Assembly (NCBI GenBank): GCA_965223545.1
Contig: OZ245006.1
Coordinates: forward strand, 7,360,001-7,424,000
Origin: Planctomycetota bacterium
GTDB taxonomy: Bacteria; Planctomycetota; UBA1135; UBA2386
DNA: 64,000 nucleotides
Direction of reading: 5' to 3'
The first letter of the stretch is position 1; every line of letters starts with the position of its first letter. Positions 45,106 through 58,778 of this stretch are shown here, piece by piece. Position numbers and translations under genes: made by a program. The notes beneath the pieces are model-generated. The model was not told where the DNA came from. It searched no databases and worked only from the letters and a program-made list of their open reading frames with translations.

Positions 45106-46101
45106 TCAGGGCACGGGCACGGTGTCGAACACGCGCCGCACGACGTCCTCGGCGCGGACGCCCTCGGCCTCGGCCTCGAAGGTGGTGATCACCCGGTGCC
45201 GCAGCACCGCGATGCCCACTTGCTTGACGTCCTCCGGCGTGACGAACCCCCGGCCGGCGAGGAACGCCTGTGCCCGGGCCGCCTGGGTCCAGGCGATCGC
45301 CGCCCGCGGCGAGGCGCCGTACAGGATCAAGGGCTCGAGGTCGGTCAGGCCGTGCTCGGCGGGGTGTCGCGTCGTGCGCACCAGGTCGACGATGTAGCCC
45401 CGCACTTGTGCGTCGACGTAGACGTCGTCGAGCACTGCCCGCGCCGCGAGGATCTGCGCCGGGCTCGCCACCGTGTCGGCGGTGGGACGCCGCGTGTTGG
45501 AGGCCATGCGCTCGACCATAGCGTCTTCTTCTTCGCGCGACGGGTACTCGACGACGACCTTGAGCATGAAGCGGTCGAGCTGCGCCTCCGGCAGCGCGTA
45601 GGTGCCCTCTTGCTCGACCGGGTTCTGGGTCGCCAGCACCAAAAACGGCGACGGCAGGGCATGCGACTCGCCGGCCAGCGTCACCTGCCGTTCCTGCATG
45701 GCCTCGAGGAGGGCCGACTGCACCTTGGCCGGCGCGCGGTTGATCTCGTCGGCGAGGACGAAGTGGCCGAAGACGGGACCCAGGTGGACGGTCCAGTCGC
45801 CGGTCTTGGGGTTGTAGACCTGGGTGCCGAGCAGGTCCGAAGGCAGGAGATCGGGGGTGAATTGGAGGCGTTGGAAGGTGCCGCCGAGGGCGCGGGCCAG
45901 GGTCTGCACCGCCAGGGTCTTGGCCAGGCCGGGGACGCCCTCGAGCAGGACGTGGCCGTCGGCGAGCAGGCCGATCAGCATGCCGTCGATCAGCGCGCGC
46001 TGGCCGACGATGACGCGCTCGACCTCGCGGCGCACGTCGGTCAAAAATGCGCTCTCTTTGGCGATGCGGTCGGCGACGGCGGTGGGATCGGCGTGTGGCA
46101 T
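45106..46101 (-). CDS. moxR: MoxR-family AAA+ ATPase
   Basis: LEGVPGLAKT, QFTPDLLPSD, DEINRAPAKVQSALLE and LPEAQLDRF. Confidence 0.96.
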   Translation of the reverse strand: MPHADPTAVADRIAKESAFLTDVRREVERVIVGQRALIDGMLIGLLADGHVLLEGVPGLAKTLAVQTLARALGGTFQRLQFTPDLLPSDLLGTQVYNPKTGDWTVHLGPVFGHFVLADEINRAPAKVQSALLEAMQERQVTLAGESHALPSPFLVLATQNPVEQEGTYALPEAQLDRFMLKVVVEYPSREEEDAMVERMASNTRRPTADTVASPAQILAARAVLDDVYVDAQVRGYIVDLVRTTRHPAEHGLTDLEPLILYGASPRAAIAWTQAARAQAFLAGRGFVTPEDVKQVGIAVLRHRVITTFEAEAEGVRAEDVVRRVFDTVPVP

Positions 46102-46226
46102 GCGCTCTGGGCCGGTCTACGGGGCGGCTGGGGCGGCGCGAGTGTAGTGCGGCGACTGGGCAGCGCCCAGGGCACGGGTTACCTTCGTCGGCGTCCCGCG
46201 TTCCCGCCGAGGCCTTCGATCCAAAC

Positions 46227-48431
46227 ATGACTCTCCTCTCCGTGCCGGTTCGCGCGCCCCTCGCGGTTCTCGTTCTGTCCGTGTTGCCGTTGGCGGCGCA
46301 GGGCGGTCCACCGCCCGGCAGCCGCGAAGCGATGTGGCCGGCGCCGACCGACGAGGACTGGGCGCGTCCGTGCTTGGTCCAGTGGCAGCGCACCTGGGAC
46401 GACGCGGTCGCGGTGTCGCAGGAGACCGGCAAGGCGATTTTGGTGTGCGTCAATATGGACGGCGAGATCGCCAGCGAGCACTACGCCGGCATCCGCTACC
46501 GGCAGCCGGAGATCGCCTCGCTGTACGAGCCCTACGTGACGGTGATCGCCTCGGTGTACCGACACACTCCCCGCGACCACGACGAACACGGCAACCGCAT
46601 CCCGTGTCCGCGGTTCGGCGGGGTGACCTGTGGTGAGCACATCTCCATCGAGCCGCTGCTGTACGAGAAGTTCATGGACGGCCGGCGCATCGCGCCGCGG
46701 CACATCATGGTCGAGCTCGACGGCAGCGAGACGTACGACGTGTTCTACGCCTTCGACACCGACTCGGTGTTCCAGGCGATCCGCGAGGGCATCGCCAACC
46801 GCGAGCACGAGCCGACCAACATCACGCGCGGCGACCGCACCATCACCGAGCGGGTGGCAGGGCGCGACTACAGCGACCGGCTGGCGGTCGAAGAGGCCTA
46901 CCAACAGGGCGACGCCGCGCAGCGCCGCTCGCTGCTCGAGGCGGCGATCGCGGCGGGCGATGCCGCATCGGTCGATCTGCTGCGGCTGGCGGTGTTCGGC
47001 GTCGATCCCGAGCTTGCCGCGCTGGCGCGGCAGGCGTTGGCCAAGGCGGAGGGCGCGGGGGCTGCCGATCTGATCAACGAGGCGCTGCGCGCGCCGATGG
47101 CGGCGGCTGAGCGCGACCAGCTGGTCGGCGCGCTGGGCCGCATCGGCGAGCAATCGCCGCGGGCGCGGACGCTGGCGGTGGTGCACCGCGGGCTGGGTGG
47201 GCGCTCGCGGGCGGTCGATCTCGACGGCTGGGCGCAGTCGCTGCGGGGCGCCGAGTACCCGGCGCAGCCGGCCGGGTTCGATGAGCTGGCGACGCGGATC
47301 GACGAGCGCGAGCAGGCCAGCACTGCGCGGCCGCAAGACGCCGCCGCGCAGCTCGACTTGGCGGTGGCTTCCCTGGCGCTGGCGCTCGACCCCGAGACTG
47401 CCGAGGTGCTGCCCGCCGACCGCCGCAACGCGGGGCGTTACCTGCAGCTGATGTTCGAAGACGCGCGTCGCGCAGCGGAGGACGCCGAGCGGCTGGGGGC
47501 CGAGGGCTGGAAGCTGGATGCGGTGTTCGCCGTGGTGGCGCACAACACCGGTGATGCCGCCGAGGCCTACCGGCGGGCAGAAGCAGCGGTCGCGGCGCTG
47601 CCAGCCGGTGTCACCGATCGCGAGGCTGCCGCCGTGCTCGAGCTGTTCGCGCACGGCAGGCAGCGGGCGATCTCGGCAGCGGTGGTCGACAAGGAGCGCT
47701 GGCCGCCGGAGTGGCTCAGCGATCTGGACGCCGCTTACTCGGTGCTCAGCGAGCACCCGCTCGGCACCGAGCAGCACATCGTCGACCACTACGACTTCAT
47801 GGCGTGGCTGCGGGCGCGCGGCCGGGCCTCGCGCGTCCTGGACCGCGGCCTCGCCCGCTATCCGGACTCCGCCGCGATCCACGAGCGGTTGCGCAAGAAG
47901 GTGTTGCGCGAGCGCGGCGTCGAGGGGCTGCAGCGGGTCTACGACGACATGCTGGCGGCGCCGGACGCGACCGCCAGCACGCGGTGGTTCGCCGGCTACG
48001 CCGCGATGGTCGCCGGTGAGTTCCACCGCCGCGCCAGCGACGGCCCGCCGGCCGCCGCGGCCTACGACCGGGCCATCGCGCACTTCGAGGCCTGCGCCGC
48101 GCAGGAGGAGTCGTTTCGCGACAGCGCCGAGCACCAGATCGCCATGGCGATGGCTGGCCAGGCCCGAGTCGCGCTCGACGCCGGCAATCTGGATGCGGCC
48201 CTGGCGCTGCTTCTGGCCACGTTCGAAAGGCGGCCCGAGTCGGCGGCGACGTTGGACGGCATGAACCTGTCGGCGGTGGCGACCGCGCAGATGCTGCGCG
48301 CCGTGCTGCGCCAAGCCGGTCGCGACGAGCAGGCCGCGACGCTGCAGGCCGCGCTCGACGGCCTCGACCCCGAGTTGCTGGAGATGCCCGCGTTCGAGCG
48401 CGAGGCGCCGTTGCCCGGCAACGGCGGCTGA
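46227..48431 (+). CDS. Secreted hypothetical protein: thioredoxin-like N-domain plus HEAT/TPR helices
   Basis: Signal peptide and WQRTWDDAVAVSQETGKAILVCVN thioredoxin-like start. CPRFGGVTCGEH motif, then an Ala-rich helical remainder. Confidence 0.65.
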   Translation: MTLLSVPVRAPLAVLVLSVLPLAAQGGPPPGSREAMWPAPTDEDWARPCLVQWQRTWDDAVAVSQETGKAILVCVNMDGEIASEHYAGIRYRQPEIASLYEPYVTVIASVYRHTPRDHDEHGNRIPCPRFGGVTCGEHISIEPLLYEKFMDGRRIAPRHIMVELDGSETYDVFYAFDTDSVFQAIREGIANREHEPTNITRGDRTITERVAGRDYSDRLAVEEAYQQGDAAQRRSLLEAAIAAGDAASVDLLRLAVFGVDPELAALARQALAKAEGAGAADLINEALRAPMAAAERDQLVGALGRIGEQSPRARTLAVVHRGLGGRSRAVDLDGWAQSLRGAEYPAQPAGFDELATRIDEREQASTARPQDAAAQLDLAVASLALALDPETAEVLPADRRNAGRYLQLMFEDARRAAEDAERLGAEGWKLDAVFAVVAHNTGDAAEAYRRAEAAVAALPAGVTDREAAAVLELFAHGRQRAISAAVVDKERWPPEWLSDLDAAYSVLSEHPLGTEQHIVDHYDFMAWLRARGRASRVLDRGLARYPDSAAIHERLRKKVLRERGVEGLQRVYDDMLAAPDATASTRWFAGYAAMVAGEFHRRASDGPPAAAAYDRAIAHFEACAAQEESFRDSAEHQIAMAMAGQARVALDAGNLDAALALLLATFERRPESAATLDGMNLSAVATAQMLRAVLRQAGRDEQAATLQAALDGLDPELLEMPAFEREAPLPGNGG

Positions 48432-51481: not shown

Positions 51482-53707
51482 TCAGCGCCCGGCCTCCGCC
51501 TGGGCTGCCGCCGGCAGCTCCAAGCGAACCTCGGCGCACCACATGCCGACCGGGTCTCCGCGTTCGGTCAACGTGCGCGCCAGCACCGACGGCTGCCTTG
51601 CCAGCACTCCATCGAACAGCACGCGCGCGCGGTGACGGACCACGACGGGGCGATCGAGATCGAGCATCGCGTCGTCCAAGCGAACGCTGACGGAAGCGAC
51701 ACCGGTGGCTTCGAGAATCGCGATCTCCTGTCCGCGGCGCTCGACGACGAGCCGGCTGCCCGCGACGGGCTCATCCACCGACAGCCAGTAGAAGCGGCGG
51801 TGCGTGCGGCGCCCCTGCTGCCAAACCACGCGCGTCGGCCGCAGCTCTCGACGGCGCTCGGCCATCCAGGGCAATGCAGTCGCGTCGTCGCCGTCCATCC
51901 AGTGGCCCTTGCCCGCGTGGATCTCGACCCAGTGGTCGTATCCCTCGGGATCGGCGGCACGCAGCTGCGCCAGCTGGTCGCGCCACTGCGCCGCCACCGC
52001 GTTGCGCTTGTAGGCGCTGTCGTCGGCGCCCATGTGCAGAGTGAAGGCCGTGTTGCGCAAGGACGCGGGCCGGGCGTCGTTGGGATGGCCGGCCATCATC
52101 GCTGCCGCGGCCCAGCGATCGGCCATGCGCGGCGCCAGCTGGTAGACGCCGTCGCCGCCCGCCGAGTAGCCCATCAGATAGACGCGGTCGGGGTCGACGC
52201 CGTGCAGGGCGACCATGTTCTCGATCAAGCGGTCGAACAGGACGTCGATGTGGTCGCGGTGCCAGAGGTTCCAGGTGTCGGTCGGTGCGCGGGGCGCGAC
52301 GTAGATGCCTTCGGGCGGGGCGTACAGCTTCTGTTGGTTGGCCCACTGGCGGTCGTTCACCGCCGCCGGAGCGCCGCCGCCACCGTGCAGGGACAGCCAC
52401 AGGCTGCGCCCGTTGGGTCCGGGCTCGCCGCGCGTGGTGAACCAGAACGGCATCCGGTGCTCGCCGTGCGTCAGCGCGCCGGCCTCCATCTCGGCCTGGC
52501 GCTCGCGCCGCAGCCGCGCGACGTGGTCGGTCCACAGCGACTCCTTCTCGGTCTCGGCCTCGGCGCGCGTCAGCCCGGGTTTCAGCCGCAACGCGACCAG
52601 CTGTTGGTCCGACTCGACGACCACGGTCTGCGCCGCGGCCACGCCCGGACCGCTCGCCTCGATCATGACCTCTGCGCCGAGCGGCAGCGTCGTCTCGACG
52701 TGGTCGTTGGCGTCGAATCGCTCGTCCTTGCTCTCGCCGGCGAACAGCAGACGGCCGTCGCCGGCGGAGTGCACGGTCACCGGTACCCGGCGGCGGCGCC
52801 CGTCCGCCGGGTCGGTGACGACCACGCGCACCCGCGCGTGACCGTCGGCAACCGCCGCCGCGTCCCTGGTGTAGCGCTCGGTGACGTTGATTCCGTACAC
52901 CTCGCTGGCGCCGCGCCGCCACACCAGGGGGAAGCGCTGCGGCGTCGGCACGTAGCTCGTGGCGAAGATCCCGTAGCGCTCGGAGTCGGCGCGCGCGTCG
53001 GCGGCGCGGCTGACGAACCACGCGCGGTCGAGTTCGTCGCCGGTCGGTTCCGCCGCGCCGGTGAAGTGCCAGCCACGGTCCCAGATCTCCACCCAGGAGT
53101 GGTTGCCGCTGTCGTCCGACCACCGCGGCGTGCCGACGAAGCGCGCCGGAACGCCGACCGCGCGGCAGGCGCTGATCAGCAGCACCGACAGACCGGTGCA
53201 GGATGCCATGCCGGCTTCGATCGATTCGTACGGACTCTGGTCGGCCTTCGGCCGTTTCGTCGAGTAGTGCACGCCGAGCTCGTCGAAGATCCGCTGGTTG
53301 AGCAGCACGGCCGCGGCGGCCGGCGTCTCGGCCTCGGCGACCAGCGGGTGAAAGCGCTCGTAGAAGTCGCGGCGCCAGGCGTCGCGCCGCTCGCCGATGT
53401 TGGCGTAGGGCAGCACGTACTCGAAGAAGTAACGCTCGGGCACCTCGTCGGACCACGGCGCCGCCCGCCACGCGCGGTAGGCGAACTGCACGTGCTCGAC
53501 GAGGAAGTCCGCGGTGAGCGTGCGCAGGTCGGTCTCCGGCATGTGCCGCAGCAAGAACTCGAGCCCGGGGCGCTCGTCATCGGCGACGCGCTCCAGCGCC
53601 GCGCGCAGCGCGGGGAGGTTGTCACCGGCGCGCTCGAGGGTCTGCTCGAGCGCGGTGGGGGACTGCGGCAGGGCGAGCGCGAGCGCGGTGAGGCTGAGCG
53701 GAAGCAT
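51482..53707 (-). CDS. Secreted transglutaminase-like domain fused to an alpha/beta hydrolase (esterase/PHB-depolymerase-like)
   Basis: From ATG 53707. SCTGLS and NHSWVE in the first domain; LHGGG, GYSAGG and KGHWM in the second. Confidence 0.85.
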   Translation of the reverse strand: MLPLSLTALALALPQSPTALEQTLERAGDNLPALRAALERVADDERPGLEFLLRHMPETDLRTLTADFLVEHVQFAYRAWRAAPWSDEVPERYFFEYVLPYANIGERRDAWRRDFYERFHPLVAEAETPAAAAVLLNQRIFDELGVHYSTKRPKADQSPYESIEAGMASCTGLSVLLISACRAVGVPARFVGTPRWSDDSGNHSWVEIWDRGWHFTGAAEPTGDELDRAWFVSRAADARADSERYGIFATSYVPTPQRFPLVWRRGASEVYGINVTERYTRDAAAVADGHARVRVVVTDPADGRRRRVPVTVHSAGDGRLLFAGESKDERFDANDHVETTLPLGAEVMIEASGPGVAAAQTVVVESDQQLVALRLKPGLTRAEAETEKESLWTDHVARLRRERQAEMEAGALTHGEHRMPFWFTTRGEPGPNGRSLWLSLHGGGGAPAAVNDRQWANQQKLYAPPEGIYVAPRAPTDTWNLWHRDHIDVLFDRLIENMVALHGVDPDRVYLMGYSAGGDGVYQLAPRMADRWAAAAMMAGHPNDARPASLRNTAFTLHMGADDSAYKRNAVAAQWRDQLAQLRAADPEGYDHWVEIHAGKGHWMDGDDATALPWMAERRRELRPTRVVWQQGRRTHRRFYWLSVDEPVAGSRLVVERRGQEIAILEATGVASVSVRLDDAMLDLDRPVVVRHRARVLFDGVLARQPSVLARTLTERGDPVGMWCAEVRLELPAAAQAEAGR

Positions 53708-53789
53708 GCGGGACCGAGGATACCCGAGGCTCGGATGCGTCCGTCGCTCCGCTCGGCTATCTTGGCGCGCTGTCGTCTCGCGATCGCCC

Positions 53790-54140
53790 ATGGATGCACA
53801 AGACCTGGACCAACCCGTCGTAATCGCCGAGGGCAGCGCGCCCGAGATGGGGCGGCTCTGCGGCTTGCTGCGCGCGCAGTCGATCGCGGCGGCGCTGGTG
53901 CCCTCGAGGCGCGGATCGGGTTGAGGCACACGGGCCGGGCTCGCGGTCGCGGGCTCGTCGGCGGCCGAGGCTCTGCAGTGCCTGCGCAGCGACGAGCAGC
54001 GTGGAATGTCCGAGATCGAGCGCCTCGCCTCGGAGGTCAACGTCGACTTCGACGCCGACGAGGCGGTGTGTCCGGCGTGCGCGACGATTTTCTCGACCGC
54101 GCTGCGCCGCTGCCCCGAGTGCGACCTCAACTTCGGCTGA
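53790..54140 (+). CDS. Putative selenoprotein (116 aa; Sec at codon 45, GSG-U-G) with C-terminal zinc ribbon
   Basis: The frame from ATG 53790 hits TGA 53922-53924 and continues open to 54140, giving ...AVCPACATIFSTALRRCPECDLNFG. A SECIS-like hairpin follows the TGA. Confidence 0.75.
53936..53957 (+). promoter_or_regulatory. Putative bacterial SECIS element
   Basis: CGGGCTCGC-GGTC-GCGGGCTCG forms a 9-bp stem with a GGUC loop, starting 11 nt after the in-frame TGA. Confidence 0.7.
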
Positions 54141-54160
54141 GCGTTCGGGGGCCGAGAGTC

Positions 54161-55528
54161 TTAGCGCGGCGACGACATTCCCGAAGGCCGGTTGCCTGCC
54201 GGAGTTCGATCCCGCAACTCCCGGGCGCTGAGCTGGTCCTTCGCGATCGCCGCGCGCAAACCCCATGGACTCTTGTGCACTCGCGCCGCCAACACCCAGG
54301 TGATCGCGAAGCCGGCGAGGTAGGACAGAGCCGTGGCCTGCGCCGCGCCGACGATCCCCATGCGCGGGATCAGCACGGCGTTGGCGCCGATGTTGATCGC
54401 GGCGATCAGCATCGAGGTCAGCGACAGCAGATGGGTCTTGCGCTCGTAGAACAGGTAGCCGCTGCGCATCTTGTACATGCCGTTGAAGGCAAGGCCGAGT
54501 CCGACCCAGAGCACACAATCGGCGCCGCCGCGGAAGTCCGCGCCGATGAACCACTGATAGATCCACGGCACGACCGCCGCCAGCAGCAGGGCGGCGCCGA
54601 CGATGGCGAGGTCGTAGGCGTAGATGATCAGTACGATGCGCCGATTCTGCTCGGCATCCCGGCGGCGGATCTGCTCGCAGAACCATGGCAGCCAGCCGCG
54701 GTGGAAGGAGTCTTGCAGCAGCCCGATCACCAGGCCGATCTGCGCGGCGACCACGAACACCCCGGTCTGCTGCGAGCCGAGCAGGTTCTCGACCAGCACG
54801 CGGTCGGCGGTGCTGACCGCGAGGCCGGCCAGCGCGACCGGCAGCAGCGGCACGCCGAAGCCGAGGGCGTGGCGCATGGCGGCCGGGTCCGGCCGCCGGC
54901 GCAGGAATCCCAAGCGCTGCAGGATGCCGAGGCCCAGGGCGCAGAAGATCGCGTAGGTCGTCAGCTGCGCGACGACCCGTCCCTGCCAGCCCGTGGTGAA
55001 GCCGACGACGAGCAGCAGAGTCAGCGCCGCGTTGCAGATCGCGATGCCGATCTGGAACGCCGCGTAGCGCGTGGGCTGCACGCGCACTTGCCAGATCGCC
55101 AGCACGATGCGCGTGATCACCTGGGCGCTCGCGCACCACACGACCAACCACAGCCAGTCGGCCGTGATCTTGGTCCAGCGCTCGATCGCCGGCGCGGCCA
55201 GCCACAGGGCGGCGGCCACCAACGCCGTGCCGGCCGCCCAAAGCCAGACGCAGCTGCCGACGTAGGCGGGGAAGTCGCACTGCTCGCGGTCGTAGTAGCG
55301 CCGGGCGATCGCGTTCTGCACGCTCACCCCCGCGAAGGTCGCCGCCAAGCCGATCAGCACTTGGAACATGGCGACCGCCGCCATGTCCTCGGTGGTGAGG
55401 CAACGCGTCAGCACCGGCAGCAGCAGGAACGGCACCGCCGCGGCGATCACGTTGCTCGCGGTGTACACCCCGACGGTCTTCGAGAACCGAGAGGTCGCCC
55501 ACTGCAGCAGTACTTGTCGGTGGCTCAC
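54161..55528 (-). CDS. Wzx-like oligosaccharide flippase (PST family)
   Basis: VPFLLLPVLTR, ALGFGVPL, ADRVLV and LIPRMGIVGAA; many TM segments. Confidence 0.85.
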   Translation of the reverse strand: MSHRQVLLQWATSRFSKTVGVYTASNVIAAAVPFLLLPVLTRCLTTEDMAAVAMFQVLIGLAATFAGVSVQNAIARRYYDREQCDFPAYVGSCVWLWAAGTALVAAALWLAAPAIERWTKITADWLWLVVWCASAQVITRIVLAIWQVRVQPTRYAAFQIGIAICNAALTLLLVVGFTTGWQGRVVAQLTTYAIFCALGLGILQRLGFLRRRPDPAAMRHALGFGVPLLPVALAGLAVSTADRVLVENLLGSQQTGVFVVAAQIGLVIGLLQDSFHRGWLPWFCEQIRRRDAEQNRRIVLIIYAYDLAIVGAALLLAAVVPWIYQWFIGADFRGGADCVLWVGLGLAFNGMYKMRSGYLFYERKTHLLSLTSMLIAAINIGANAVLIPRMGIVGAAQATALSYLAGFAITWVLAARVHKSPWGLRAAIAKDQLSARELRDRTPAGNRPSGMSSPR

Positions 55529-55618: not shown

Positions 55619-56056
55619 CTAGTCCGCTTCCGCCACCTCGAGCAGAGCATCGAGCGCGCCCGGGATCGTCACCGCCCGCATCCGCCCACCGTCCGCGTCC
55701 TTGCGCACGCACACCGCCGTCATCGTGCCCTGCGCAGTGCGCCGCGGGCCATCCTCACCGGCAACCGTGAAGTCGATCTCGTAGGTCACCGACGTGCGCC
55801 GCTTCGCGCGCACGCGCAAGCGCAGCTCGACCTCGTCCTCGTAGTGCAGTGGTGCCTCGTAGTGGCAGCTGGCGCTGCCGCGCGCCCAACCGACGAAGCC
55901 GTCGCCGTCGGCGTGGTGCACGCGGTGGCCGAGGGAGCGGAAGAAGGCGTGCTCGACCTCTTCCATGTAGCGGAAGTAGTTGGAGAAGTGCAGGATGCCG
56001 GCCATGTCGGTCTCGGCGAACTCGACGCGGCGGCGCATGGTGAACTCGGTCGGCAC
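55619..56056 (-). CDS. Acyl-CoA thioesterase (4HBT hotdog family)
   Basis: VEFAETDMAGILHFSNYFRYME. Confidence 0.9.
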   Translation of the reverse strand: MPTEFTMRRRVEFAETDMAGILHFSNYFRYMEEVEHAFFRSLGHRVHHADGDGFVGWARGSASCHYEAPLHYEDEVELRLRVRAKRRTSVTYEIDFTVAGEDGPRRTAQGTMTAVCVRKDADGGRMRAVTIPGALDALLEVAEAD

Positions 56057-56063
56057 GGCGGGG

Positions 56064-57404
56064 TCAGGCGTACCGCGCGTTCCGGTGCCGGTCGAGGAAG
56101 AAGCCCTGGAGTAGCGGATCCACCTGCAGCAGGCCCTGCCGGGTCAGCACCACCGCGCCCTCTTCGAGCTCGAGATGACCGCGGCTCTGGTAGTCGCGCA
56201 GCACACCGGCGAAGCGCTGCTGGGGGTCGACCCCGAACTTGTCGACGAACGGCCGGGTCTCGACGCGGCCCAGCTTCAGCTGCAGCACGAACTCGCGGAT
56301 CATCCGTTCTTCGTCGGTGAGCTGCAGGGCGCGGCGCAGCGGGAACGCGCCGGCCTCGACCGCTTGCAGGTAGTCGTCGAGGTGGTGCGCGTTCTGCACG
56401 TGGAAGCCGCCGAGGTGCGAGAACGAGGCGACGCCGATGCCGAGCATGTCGGCGCCGTGCCACAGCGCGTCGCGGTAGCGGAAGTGGACCTCGTCGCCGC
56501 GCACGGCCGTGTAGGCGCTGCCGATGCGATAGCCGTCGCGCTCCAAGGCGGCGAACGCTTCGCCGACCCAGCGGCGCTTGGTCGGCCAGTCCGCCACCGG
56601 CGCGACCTGTTGGCCGCCGTCGCGCATGCGCCGGTAGAGCGTCGTGTTGTACGGCACCTCCATCTGGTAGATGGTGATGCTCTCCGGCGCCAGCGCGCGG
56701 GCGCGCTCGACGCTGCGCGTCCAACCTTCATCCGACTCGCCGACCATGCCGGCGATCAGGTCGAGATTGCGCTGGTCGAAGCCCGCCTCGCCGGCCCACC
56801 CATAGGCGCGATCGATCTCGGCGGCGCGGTGGGCGCGGTTGTTGAGCGCCAGCAGCTCCGCATCGAAGCTCTCCACGCCCAGGCTGAGGCGGGTGACGCC
56901 GAGCTCGGCCAAGGCGTGCACCTTGCGCTCCTGCAAGGTCCCGGGTTCGCACTCGAAGGTCACTTCGCGCACCGCGTCCCACGGCATCAGCGCGCGCAGC
57001 TGCTCGAACAGCGAGCGCAGCTGGTCGACCGACAGATACGACGGCGTGCCGCCGCCGAAGTAGACGAACTCCGGCGGCCGGTCGCGCAGGTAGGGGGTCG
57101 CCGCCAGCAGGCGCAGCTCGGCGACCAAGGCGTCGACGTAGCGGTGGACGCGCGCCGAGTCGTTGTCGGTATAGACCCGGAAGTAGCAAAAATCGCAGCG
57201 CTTGCGGCAGAACGGGATGTGGACGTAGAGGCCGAACGGCGGCGGCTTCTCCGGCGCCAGCGCGAGCCGTTGGGTGGCCGCCGGCAGGGTTTCGGCGCTC
57301 CACGCCGAGAACGGCGGGTAGTTGGCGACGAAGTAGTTGCCGGCGGCGGTGGCGTCGGGCCGCGGCTGGGCCGTGTCGTGGTCGTTTTGGCTGGCTTCGG
57401 ACAT
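56064..57404 (-). CDS. HemN-like radical SAM enzyme
   Basis: YVHIPFCRKRCDFC, YFGGGTPS, RLSLGVESF and a HemN-type C-terminal domain. Confidence 0.9.
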   Translation of the reverse strand: MSEASQNDHDTAQPRPDATAAGNYFVANYPPFSAWSAETLPAATQRLALAPEKPPPFGLYVHIPFCRKRCDFCYFRVYTDNDSARVHRYVDALVAELRLLAATPYLRDRPPEFVYFGGGTPSYLSVDQLRSLFEQLRALMPWDAVREVTFECEPGTLQERKVHALAELGVTRLSLGVESFDAELLALNNRAHRAAEIDRAYGWAGEAGFDQRNLDLIAGMVGESDEGWTRSVERARALAPESITIYQMEVPYNTTLYRRMRDGGQQVAPVADWPTKRRWVGEAFAALERDGYRIGSAYTAVRGDEVHFRYRDALWHGADMLGIGVASFSHLGGFHVQNAHHLDDYLQAVEAGAFPLRRALQLTDEERMIREFVLQLKLGRVETRPFVDKFGVDPQQRFAGVLRDYQSRGHLELEEGAVVLTRQGLLQVDPLLQGFFLDRHRNARYA

Positions 57405-57545
57405 CGCGGCGCGCTGGATCTTAGCGTCGGTGGTACGGTTCCGGGACTCGCAGTGCGAGGCCGGCGCGCGTATCTTCCGGCGCGGCTACAGCATGCGCGC
57501 GCCCCGCGAACGGCGCGGCGCGCGTGCCAAACATACCGAAAGTTC

Positions 57546-58778
57546 GTGAATCGCTACGACGCGGCAATCATCGGCGGCGGCCCGGCGGGGGCTGCGGCAG
57601 CGCTCCTGTTGGCGCGGTCCGGGCATCGCGTCGTCGTGCTCGAGCGCGAGCGGTTCCCGCGGGTACACGTCGGCGAGTCGTTGGTGCCGGCGGTCAATCT
57701 CAGCCTGGATCGGCTCGGCGTGACCGCGGCGATGGAGAGCCTGCGCTGTCCGGCGAAGCACGGCGTGCAGTTCTTCACCCAGCGCGGCGCGGCCCGGCCG
57801 TTCTACTTTTCCGAGGTCGACGATCCCCGCATGCACACGACCTGGCAGGTCGAACGCGCTGGATTCGACGCGATGCTGCTGGACGCCGCCCGCGACGCCG
57901 GTGCCGAGGTGCGGCATGGCGTCGAGGTCGTCGCCGTGGCCGGCGCCGATGGCCGGGTCGAGGGCGTCCGCGTACGCGCGCCGGATGGCGAGCAGGAGGT
58001 CCGCGCCGGCGTCGTGGTCGACGCATCGGGTGCCTCGGGGGTCGTGGCGCGGCGGCTGGGCCAGCGCGTGCCGATCCCCGAGCTGCGCAACGCGGCGGTC
58101 TGGGCACACTACCGCGGAGCTCGCCTGGACCCGGGCATCGATGCGGGGTCGACCTTGATCTTCCGGCTCGACACCGCCGCGTGGCTGTGGTGGATCCCGT
58201 TGCCGGACGCGGTCAGCATCGGTCTGGTCGCGCCGGCGGACCGGCTGACCGAGTTCGGCAGCGAGCCGATCGCCATCCTCGAAGAGGCCATCGGCCGGAG
58301 TCCACAACTGACGGAGCGGTTGCGCACCGCCGAGCGCTGCACCGCGGCGCGGCCGGTGCGCGATTTCTCCTACGTCTCCGAGCGAGAGGGCGGACCCGGG
58401 TGGCTACTGGTCGGCGACGCCCTCGCCTTCCTCGATCCGATCTACTCGACCGGGTTGTTCCTGTCGCTGTACTCGGCGGAGCTGGCGGCGGAAGCGATCG
58501 ACGGCGCGCTGCGCACGGGCCAGCCGCTGGACTTCGACGGCTACGCGGCCGACTACCGGCGCGCGTATCGACGGTTCGAGGCGCTGGTGCGTGCCTACTA
58601 TCAAGAAGAGTTCCACTTCGGCGAGTTCGCCCGCGACGCGGAGCGGCGCCGGGGTCTGGTCGACTTGCTCAGTGGCCTGTGGGACACCGAGGCGGCGGCC
58701 GGGGTCGAGCGCGCGCTGTGGGCGCGGCACGGCACCCGGTTGGCAGCGCGGCGGCCCACCGGCACCGAGGGGTCCTGA
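57546..58778 (+). CDS. Flavin-dependent halogenase-like oxidoreductase
   Basis: GTG 57546. IIGGGPAG, FPRVHVGESL, KHG, VER..FD, WLWWIP and GDA..FLDPIYSTG. Confidence 0.85.
   Translation: MNRYDAAIIGGGPAGAAAALLLARSGHRVVVLERERFPRVHVGESLVPAVNLSLDRLGVTAAMESLRCPAKHGVQFFTQRGAARPFYFSEVDDPRMHTTWQVERAGFDAMLLDAARDAGAEVRHGVEVVAVAGADGRVEGVRVRAPDGEQEVRAGVVVDASGASGVVARRLGQRVPIPELRNAAVWAHYRGARLDPGIDAGSTLIFRLDTAAWLWWIPLPDAVSIGLVAPADRLTEFGSEPIAILEEAIGRSPQLTERLRTAERCTAARPVRDFSYVSEREGGPGWLLVGDALAFLDPIYSTGLFLSLYSAELAAEAIDGALRTGQPLDFDGYAADYRRAYRRFEALVRAYYQEEFHFGEFARDAERRRGLVDLLSGLWDTEAAAGVERALWARHGTRLAARRPTGTEGS

Follow-up and report, generated by a model that had tools for sequence, protein, structure and literature searches.

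A predicted DG-like selenoprotein in Planctomycetota, and relatives that keep its SECIS-like hairpin behind a tryptophan codon

The reading frame and decoding of its internal TGA

On the plus strand of a 64,000-nucleotide stretch of a Planctomycetota genome (hereafter the window), a small open reading frame halts in table 11 translation at SRRGSG*, on a TGA at 53922-53924. Does translation end there, or is this TGA, codon 45 of the frame, read as selenocysteine (Sec, U)? With TGA read as U, the frame that opens with the ATG at 53790 extends 71 codons further and ends at a TGA at 54138-54140, giving a protein of 116 residues. A preliminary description of this DNA had proposed this continuation, which is confirmed by the translation, as is its remark that the frame fills the gap left by its minus-strand neighbours. 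These encode a transglutaminase-like/hydrolase protein (51482-53707) and a polysaccharide flippase (54161-55528); the frame is divergent from the former and convergent with the latter. The features of the locus are as follows:

53790..54140, plus strand: predicted selenoprotein coding sequence, 116 residues, short one-ribbon form of the DG / NF049953 family
53811..54005, plus strand: predicted N-terminal beta-alpha-beta-beta-alpha domain, DUF2007-like, residues about 8-72
53922..53924, plus strand: in-frame TGA, predicted Sec45, in the Gly-rich loop that links strands 2 and 3
53936..53957, plus strand: SECIS hairpin as first described, 9 bp in the window genome, GGUC loop
53939..53954, plus strand: conserved SECIS core, a 6-bp stem with the GGUC loop at 53945-53948, overlapping the L-A-V-A codons
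54006..54140, plus strand: 44-residue C-terminal fragment given by standard gene calling in place of the whole gene (P0003, 100% identical)
54069..54122, plus strand: C4 zinc-ribbon motif CPAC-x10-CPEC (C94, C97, C108, C111), invariant in the alignments

Standard calls give one 44-residue ORF on each side of the TGA, and the sole 100% match among 90 in a protein library search is the C-terminal piece. Since the library holds just this tail at 100% identity, gene callers evidently split the gene, as had been anticipated. A word-index protein search with the selenoprotein returned 30 candidates, none at E≤0.001. A base-call error at the TGA is ruled out by a contig from another sample of the same study (which may be the source study) that is identical over 53600-54300, and by a first search of 61 genomes, in which the gene was found in 33 and carried one internal TGA in 26 of these. 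Three runs of other studies gave no coverage of the TGA site. An Rfam scan of the 64-kb window and a promoter and terminator scan of 53600-54300 each gave no match. In the protein encoded at 51482-53707, a transglutaminase-like domain is joined to one of the alpha/beta hydrolase type and a signal peptide is probable; pieces of the gene occur in runs of three other studies.

The window genome (8.1 Mb, 70% GC) contains the four Sec components that the preliminary description had wished to see, with selA at 464 bits, selB at 318 bits, selD at 346 bits and a tRNA-Sec(UCA), all above cut-off. The selD gene carries an in-frame TGA of its own. A genetic code in which UGA means Trp (tables 4/25-like) is ruled out for this genome, where TGA is the main stop and terminates 2115 of 2772 long ORFs.

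The SECIS of E. coli fdhF has an 11-nt spacing and a GGUC-containing loop. The hairpin at 53936-53957 had been likened to it; its 9 bp, its GGUC loop and its start 11 nt past the TGA all stand, but conservation among relatives is limited to the inner 6 bp (53939-53944 with 53949-53954), so that the match in spacing is partly incidental. Folded alone, the hairpin reaches -14.7 kcal/mol (z -3.29), and three wider windows of 46-79 nt give folding z values of -0.96 to +0.98, no better than shuffles. In DNA of 70% GC, folding energy is thus not by itself evidence for a SECIS; at the level of sequence, that evidence is conservation across relatives. The inner pairs are formed in 97.8% of 408 cells, with two-sided changes in three of the six pairs, compared with 22-52% for slid controls; synonymous compensatory pairs occur in loci L121, L199 and L201. 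Among the 61 TGA genes considered below, all four four-fold degenerate columns of the SECIS are invariant, whereas all ten other four-fold columns vary. The tetrapeptide L-A-V-A is written with the hairpin codons at 11 of 305 places in the long ORFs of the window genome and in 75 of 80 orthologues, three more having a G-U variant. In the passages of PMC10778597 on bacterial SECIS elements, the distance from UGA to apical loop is put at 16-37 nt; in the window gene, a G-bearing loop follows the TGA at a distance of 20 nt, within this range, with covariation. One extra codon stands between TGA and hairpin in L068, L069 and L115-L117, where the loop is 23 nt away, which shows that the spacing tolerates +3 nt.

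The complete machinery, a Cys in register at residue 45 in many homologues and the covariation of the hairpin support the Sec interpretation. At codon 45, SelB on the GGUC hairpin would almost certainly bring Sec-tRNA(UCA) to the UGA.

The window genome is also rich in other genes with an in-frame TGA and a hairpin. Eleven example loci on contig G000:C1 are:

4588144, 4468926, 5604750, 4574140, 4306602 and 1338116, minus strand: in-frame TGA and hairpin
4365069, 6713570, 1874881, 4735540 and 3116011, plus strand: in-frame TGA and hairpin

From their motifs, we presume that they resemble MsrA, peroxiredoxin, two deiodinase-like proteins, AhpD, and thioredoxin-, glutaredoxin-, SelW- and DsbD-like proteins; five of them were found with TGA in relatives. 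Further candidates at 492917 (plus), 7190035 (minus) and 3622532 (minus) of the same contig have the unrecognised motifs NNWUCIG, VNWUPLT and DWLUMCL and are possibly uncatalogued selenoprotein families. The heuristic scan of the selenoproteome gave 33 candidates and missed both the window gene and selD, and its output is therefore neither complete nor clean.

Relation to the DG family, predicted structure and possible role

Positions 54-172 of the NCBIfam profile NF049953 (ribbon_DG_selen) match residues 4-116 of the window protein at 57.9 bits (E 1.2e-15), below the curated cut-off of 130 bits. All eight short forms tested likewise fail, at 44-78 bits, and all eight long forms pass, at 187-266 bits. 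Profile and window protein have in common the Sec or Cys in the same Gly-rich loop and the C-terminal CPxC..CPxC ribbon. In contrast, the N-terminal zinc ribbon of the profile (positions 1-53) is missing from the window protein, the match starting at position 54 and no CxxC pair lying in frame upstream. The loop motif is GUG-T in the window protein and GUxG for DG in the review PMC13188914, in whose DG passages NF049953 is the deep-Sep 'hypothetical protein DG'. According to the corresponding passage of PMC12013277, DG was predicted computationally in Desulfosediminicola and has no known domain. On this comparison, the window gene very probably encodes a DG-like Sec protein. It represents a new short one-ribbon subfamily, which is a DG homologue and not a member by the curated test, and the DG family itself is already catalogued.

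The window protein has no Pfam match at E≤0.01, and at the same threshold DUF2007 (PF09413) matches three and DZR 34 of 49 homologues. Atlas look-alikes of the Cys homologue P0004, at 0.87-0.90, carry DUF2007, and DUF2007 clusters are among them. The window protein shares its small alpha/beta topology with DUF2007, a putative signal-transducing protein, combined with a zinc ribbon (DZR, Zn_ribbon_3). An AlphaFold2 model built with 49 sequences (pLDDT 91, pTM 0.67) displays a beta-alpha-beta-beta-alpha arrangement over residues 9-71, followed by a linker helix and the ribbon, with Sec45 in the loop 39-47. A Foldseek search with this model found no match at E≤0.001. With VIA-align, the first (ring-building) domains of PrgK/EscJ score best (Z 9.4, rmsd 1.6, 57 residues aligned), followed by PDB 2hfv, which we take to be a DUF2007 structure, at Z 6.9, and by ACT and PII-like domains near Z 5. 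As far as the model goes, the likeness to PrgK/EscJ reflects a small fold common to both and does not point to a common function.

None of the 22 largest neighbour clusters is common to the window locus, and 13 of 18 neighbour representatives have no Pfam match. The neighbours not being conserved, genomic context gives no function or pathway. Among homologues, the loop residue is Sec, Cys, Trp or Thr, or is missing, while the four ribbon Cys are invariant, from which we infer a structural zinc site in the C4 ribbon and a selenol that would be modulating and non-catalytic. The protein would be a small soluble two-part adaptor, in which the DUF2007-like domain presents Sec on an exposed Gly-rich loop and helices join it to the zinc ribbon. 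The binding of a partner would change with the state of this loop selenol, which is often accompanied by a Cys a few positions earlier in the chain. With an empty context, a second loop Cys (CxxU-like) in only 11 of the 61 TGA forms and the residue absent from some homologues, a non-catalytic redox or soft-metal sensor-adaptor is a guess that we hold tentatively. An enzyme with a catalytic Sec, either a thiol-disulfide oxidoreductase or a selenium/sulfur carrier, appears unlikely: Sec usually marks catalytic redox sites, and the CxxU-like loops would suit such a role, but no thioredoxin-like or other enzyme fold occurs among the structural matches, and the residue is Trp, Thr or deleted in intact orthologues.

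Codon 45 and the hairpin among the relatives

The gene is present in 74 of 91 genomes of the taxonomic family, in 229 of 339 genomes of the class and in 14 of 151 genomes drawn across the phylum. It thus constitutes a widespread predicted Planctomycetota selenoprotein (229/339 class genomes), with a score below the curated cut-off and with fragments as its database entries. Codon 45 was read in 80 orthologues, namely 73 full-length matches in the taxonomic family and seven from the order; it is TGA in 61, TGG in 18 and TGC in one. Among 40 loci from outside the taxonomic family, TGA occurs in 37 and TGG in none. In total, the alleles read comprise 98 TGA, 18 TGG and four hairpin-less forms; these counts leave out G072 (a fragment), L149 and L159 (spurious) and 83 unlisted matches of the class-wide search, as well as eight metagenome loci with TGG and SECIS, some of which duplicate genomes already used.

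Both residues looked for at position 45 in the preliminary description are found there, TGA in the 61 orthologues just given and Cys in the Sec column of many short and long homologues, several others having neither Cys nor Sec. In line with its statement that similar small zinc-ribbon proteins carry Cys in a Gly-rich loop, Sec and Cys occupy the same Gly-rich loop of the homologues. A Trp at this position had been named as evidence against Sec. It does occur, in the 18 TGG orthologues, but TGG is derived, nested among TGA forms and accompanied by the SECIS, so the Sec reading of the window gene is not refuted. Two library proteins, P0013 and P0027, also have Trp at the Sec position; P0013 is unlike the members of the TGG sub-clade, and its Trp may have arisen independently.

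The exact hairpin codons are kept in all 18 TGG genes, which belong to 10 genera and have a mean pairwise third-position identity of 0.59. As in the TGA genes, the four-fold columns of the SECIS are invariant (4/4), whereas 20 of 23 other four-fold columns vary. Within four TGG-only clades, all 16 SECIS cells are unchanged, while the other four-fold sites are invariant at 24 of 42, 18 of 37, 28 of 47 and 9 of 30 (naive P about 6e-6, if sites are independent and the ancestor of each clade had TGG). The upstream gene shows similar divergence in two of these clades, with 30 of 63 and 34 of 58 sites invariant. By contrast, the hairpin is broken in four of four forms with Cys or another state at the site: L081 (Cys) and, outside the taxonomic family, L184 (site lost), L185 (Thr) and L186 (Cys). 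In L081 and L185 it is broken although L-A-V-A is still coded, so that protein constraint does not explain the conservation of the SECIS. A DsbD-like family behaves in the same way: its Cys form L181 lacks the hairpin sequence common to the TGA forms L179, L180, L182 and L183 and is, judged from sequence, a second example of SECIS loss after a Sec-to-Cys change.

In a gene tree from which the columns of codon 45 and of the hairpin were left out (309 columns, 24 of 77 branches open), the codon state changes seven times (bootstrap 5-7), four of the changes being forced by starred branches. All changes fall inside one sub-clade of 46 genes, where TGA genes are nested among TGG genes. On the tree of the upstream gene, for which four of 32 short rows were left out, there are five changes. 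Starred branches force only two of them, and a count as low is reached in 20-24 of 500 shuffles. Syntenic neighbours in the TGG-containing sub-clade (L072:2-1918, L102:1439-1807, L107:1-2094 and L114:530-1501, at 16-32 loci each) belong to no Pfam family.

Seven of the 18 TGG genomes were checked for Sec decoding, and selA, selB and a TGA-type selD are present in all seven. A tRNA-Sec was found in five, with the anticodon UCA in each case; with one tRNA-Sec match per genome at E≤1e-10, a tRNA-Sec(CCA) is ruled out for these five. Five other selenoprotein queries gave 24 matches in five TGG genomes, 14 with TGA and 10 without (seven TGC, three unread). Genome-wide use of TGG for Sec is rejected as far as tested, because the other selenoprotein homologues have TGA or TGC wherever read, and the TGG effect is accordingly specific to the DG-like gene. 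All 18 TGG sites are preceded by C and followed by G, whereas the TGA sites vary (T before in 36/61); the fixed C-TGG-G context may stem from common descent, or UGG decoding may require it.

Readings of the TGG alleles

The sequence comparison hints at a SECIS under selection behind a Trp codon. This is a surprising lead, and the new part of the analysis lies in these relatives. We tentatively favor the reading that SelB still acts at UGG with the SECIS and that Sec competes there with Trp through wobble, to which we assign a probability of roughly 0.45. The ordinary tRNA-Sec(UCA) would read UGG by wobble; the protein would always be full length and contain Sec only in part, its selenium content following supply. 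Lineages would switch in either direction between UGA and UGG, the return to UGA being free because the SECIS never lapsed, and the window gene would be the UGA state of such a switch.

This reading has a precedent in engineered E. coli. According to the parts of Xu et al. 2013 (PMC3834832) that deal with UGG, this codon together with a SECIS and the native tRNA-Sec(UCA) yields a Sec/Trp mixture and no truncation; the product has about half the specific activity obtained with UGA, and good yields at UGG required overexpressed selABC. The TGG alleles agree with a natural counterpart of this insertion, with the difference that the E. coli system was recombinant with selABC overexpressed, whereas the TGG relatives would be the natural, selected state of one gene. 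In the natural sense-codon Sec recoding of Mukai et al. 2016, as related in passages of PMC10778597 and PMC7609411, the anticodon of tRNA-Sec matches the sense codon. The proposed UGG case is alike in that a SECIS would redirect a sense codon to Sec, and unlike in that the TGG relatives keep the UCA anticodon (5/5 read) and the TGA of selD (7/7).

Our literature searches found no report of a natural UGG gene with a SECIS, although Haft and Tolstoy 2025 and Mukai 2016 could bear on novelty. The DG passages of PMC12013277 and PMC13188914 do not mention Trp-codon forms with a SECIS, and the passages of PMC13326102 mention neither 'ribbon' nor 'tryptophan'. If the SelB reading is true, at least 18 genomes, from 10 genera, naturally give one sense codon two readings, and UGG genes with a SECIS are selenoproteins missed by every UGA-based search, so that a selenoproteome would include genes without any stop codon. 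The exit from Sec to another residue would then not lead only via Cys, and the laboratory curiosity of 2013 would be an evolved fail-safe for scarce selenium.

It is also possible, although we favor it less, that the TGG site is plain Trp and the hairpin is kept for another role, such as tuning or slowing translation with selenium status through a SelB site, mRNA stability or a protein-bound DNA palindrome. The conserved core is indeed a near-perfect inverted repeat, and at natural levels Trp-tRNA on EF-Tu should outcompete SelB, the E. coli system having needed overexpression. The uniform C-TGG-G context (18/18) and the lack of a second loop Cys in any TGG form are likewise consistent with plain Trp. 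However, a codon-independent role does not predict the loss of the hairpin in four of four Cys and other forms, and the G-U and compensatory pairs point to RNA. Moreover, TGA forms nest inside TGG clades, and some of them (L110-L113) still have the Glu found after most TGG sites, as reversions would.

Alternatively, TGG may have arisen recently and many times from TGA, through GC-biased mutation with Trp tolerated, leaving the SECIS as an undecayed fossil. Both states do occur within two genera (g34 and g35), and the gene tree is short, with the open branches noted above and change counts that give no direction. We nevertheless consider this improbable: all sampled members are TGG in genera g2 (3/3), g7 (3/3) and g3 (2/2), where the other four-fold sites have changed at 40-70% and the SECIS core shows zero changes, and TGG is absent from the 40 loci outside the taxonomic family.

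Very unlikely is a reading in which selenium has no part, the window UGA being read as Trp by hairpin-helped near-cognate read-through and TGA and TGG being equivalent. Such an equivalence would suit the presence of TGG in 18 of 80 orthologues versus TGC in one, but Cys, not Trp, dominates among the wider homologues, the family is listed among Sec families and TGG is limited to one sub-clade; a read-through stimulator would also be useless in the TGG genes, yet the hairpin is kept there. Finally, as the two 44-residue calls and the empty word-index search might suggest, the locus could be a pseudogene or two distinct small genes, or its TGA a sequencing error; the chance of this is negligible given the same codon in about a hundred genomes, the identical second contig and one confident fold spanning the site.

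Elsewhere in the window, a 794-residue ORF at 46047-48431 on the plus strand has no Pfam match at E≤0.1, and a thioesterase gene, a gene for a HemN-like radical SAM protein and a divergent flavin-dependent halogenase-like gene are grouped at 55619-58778.
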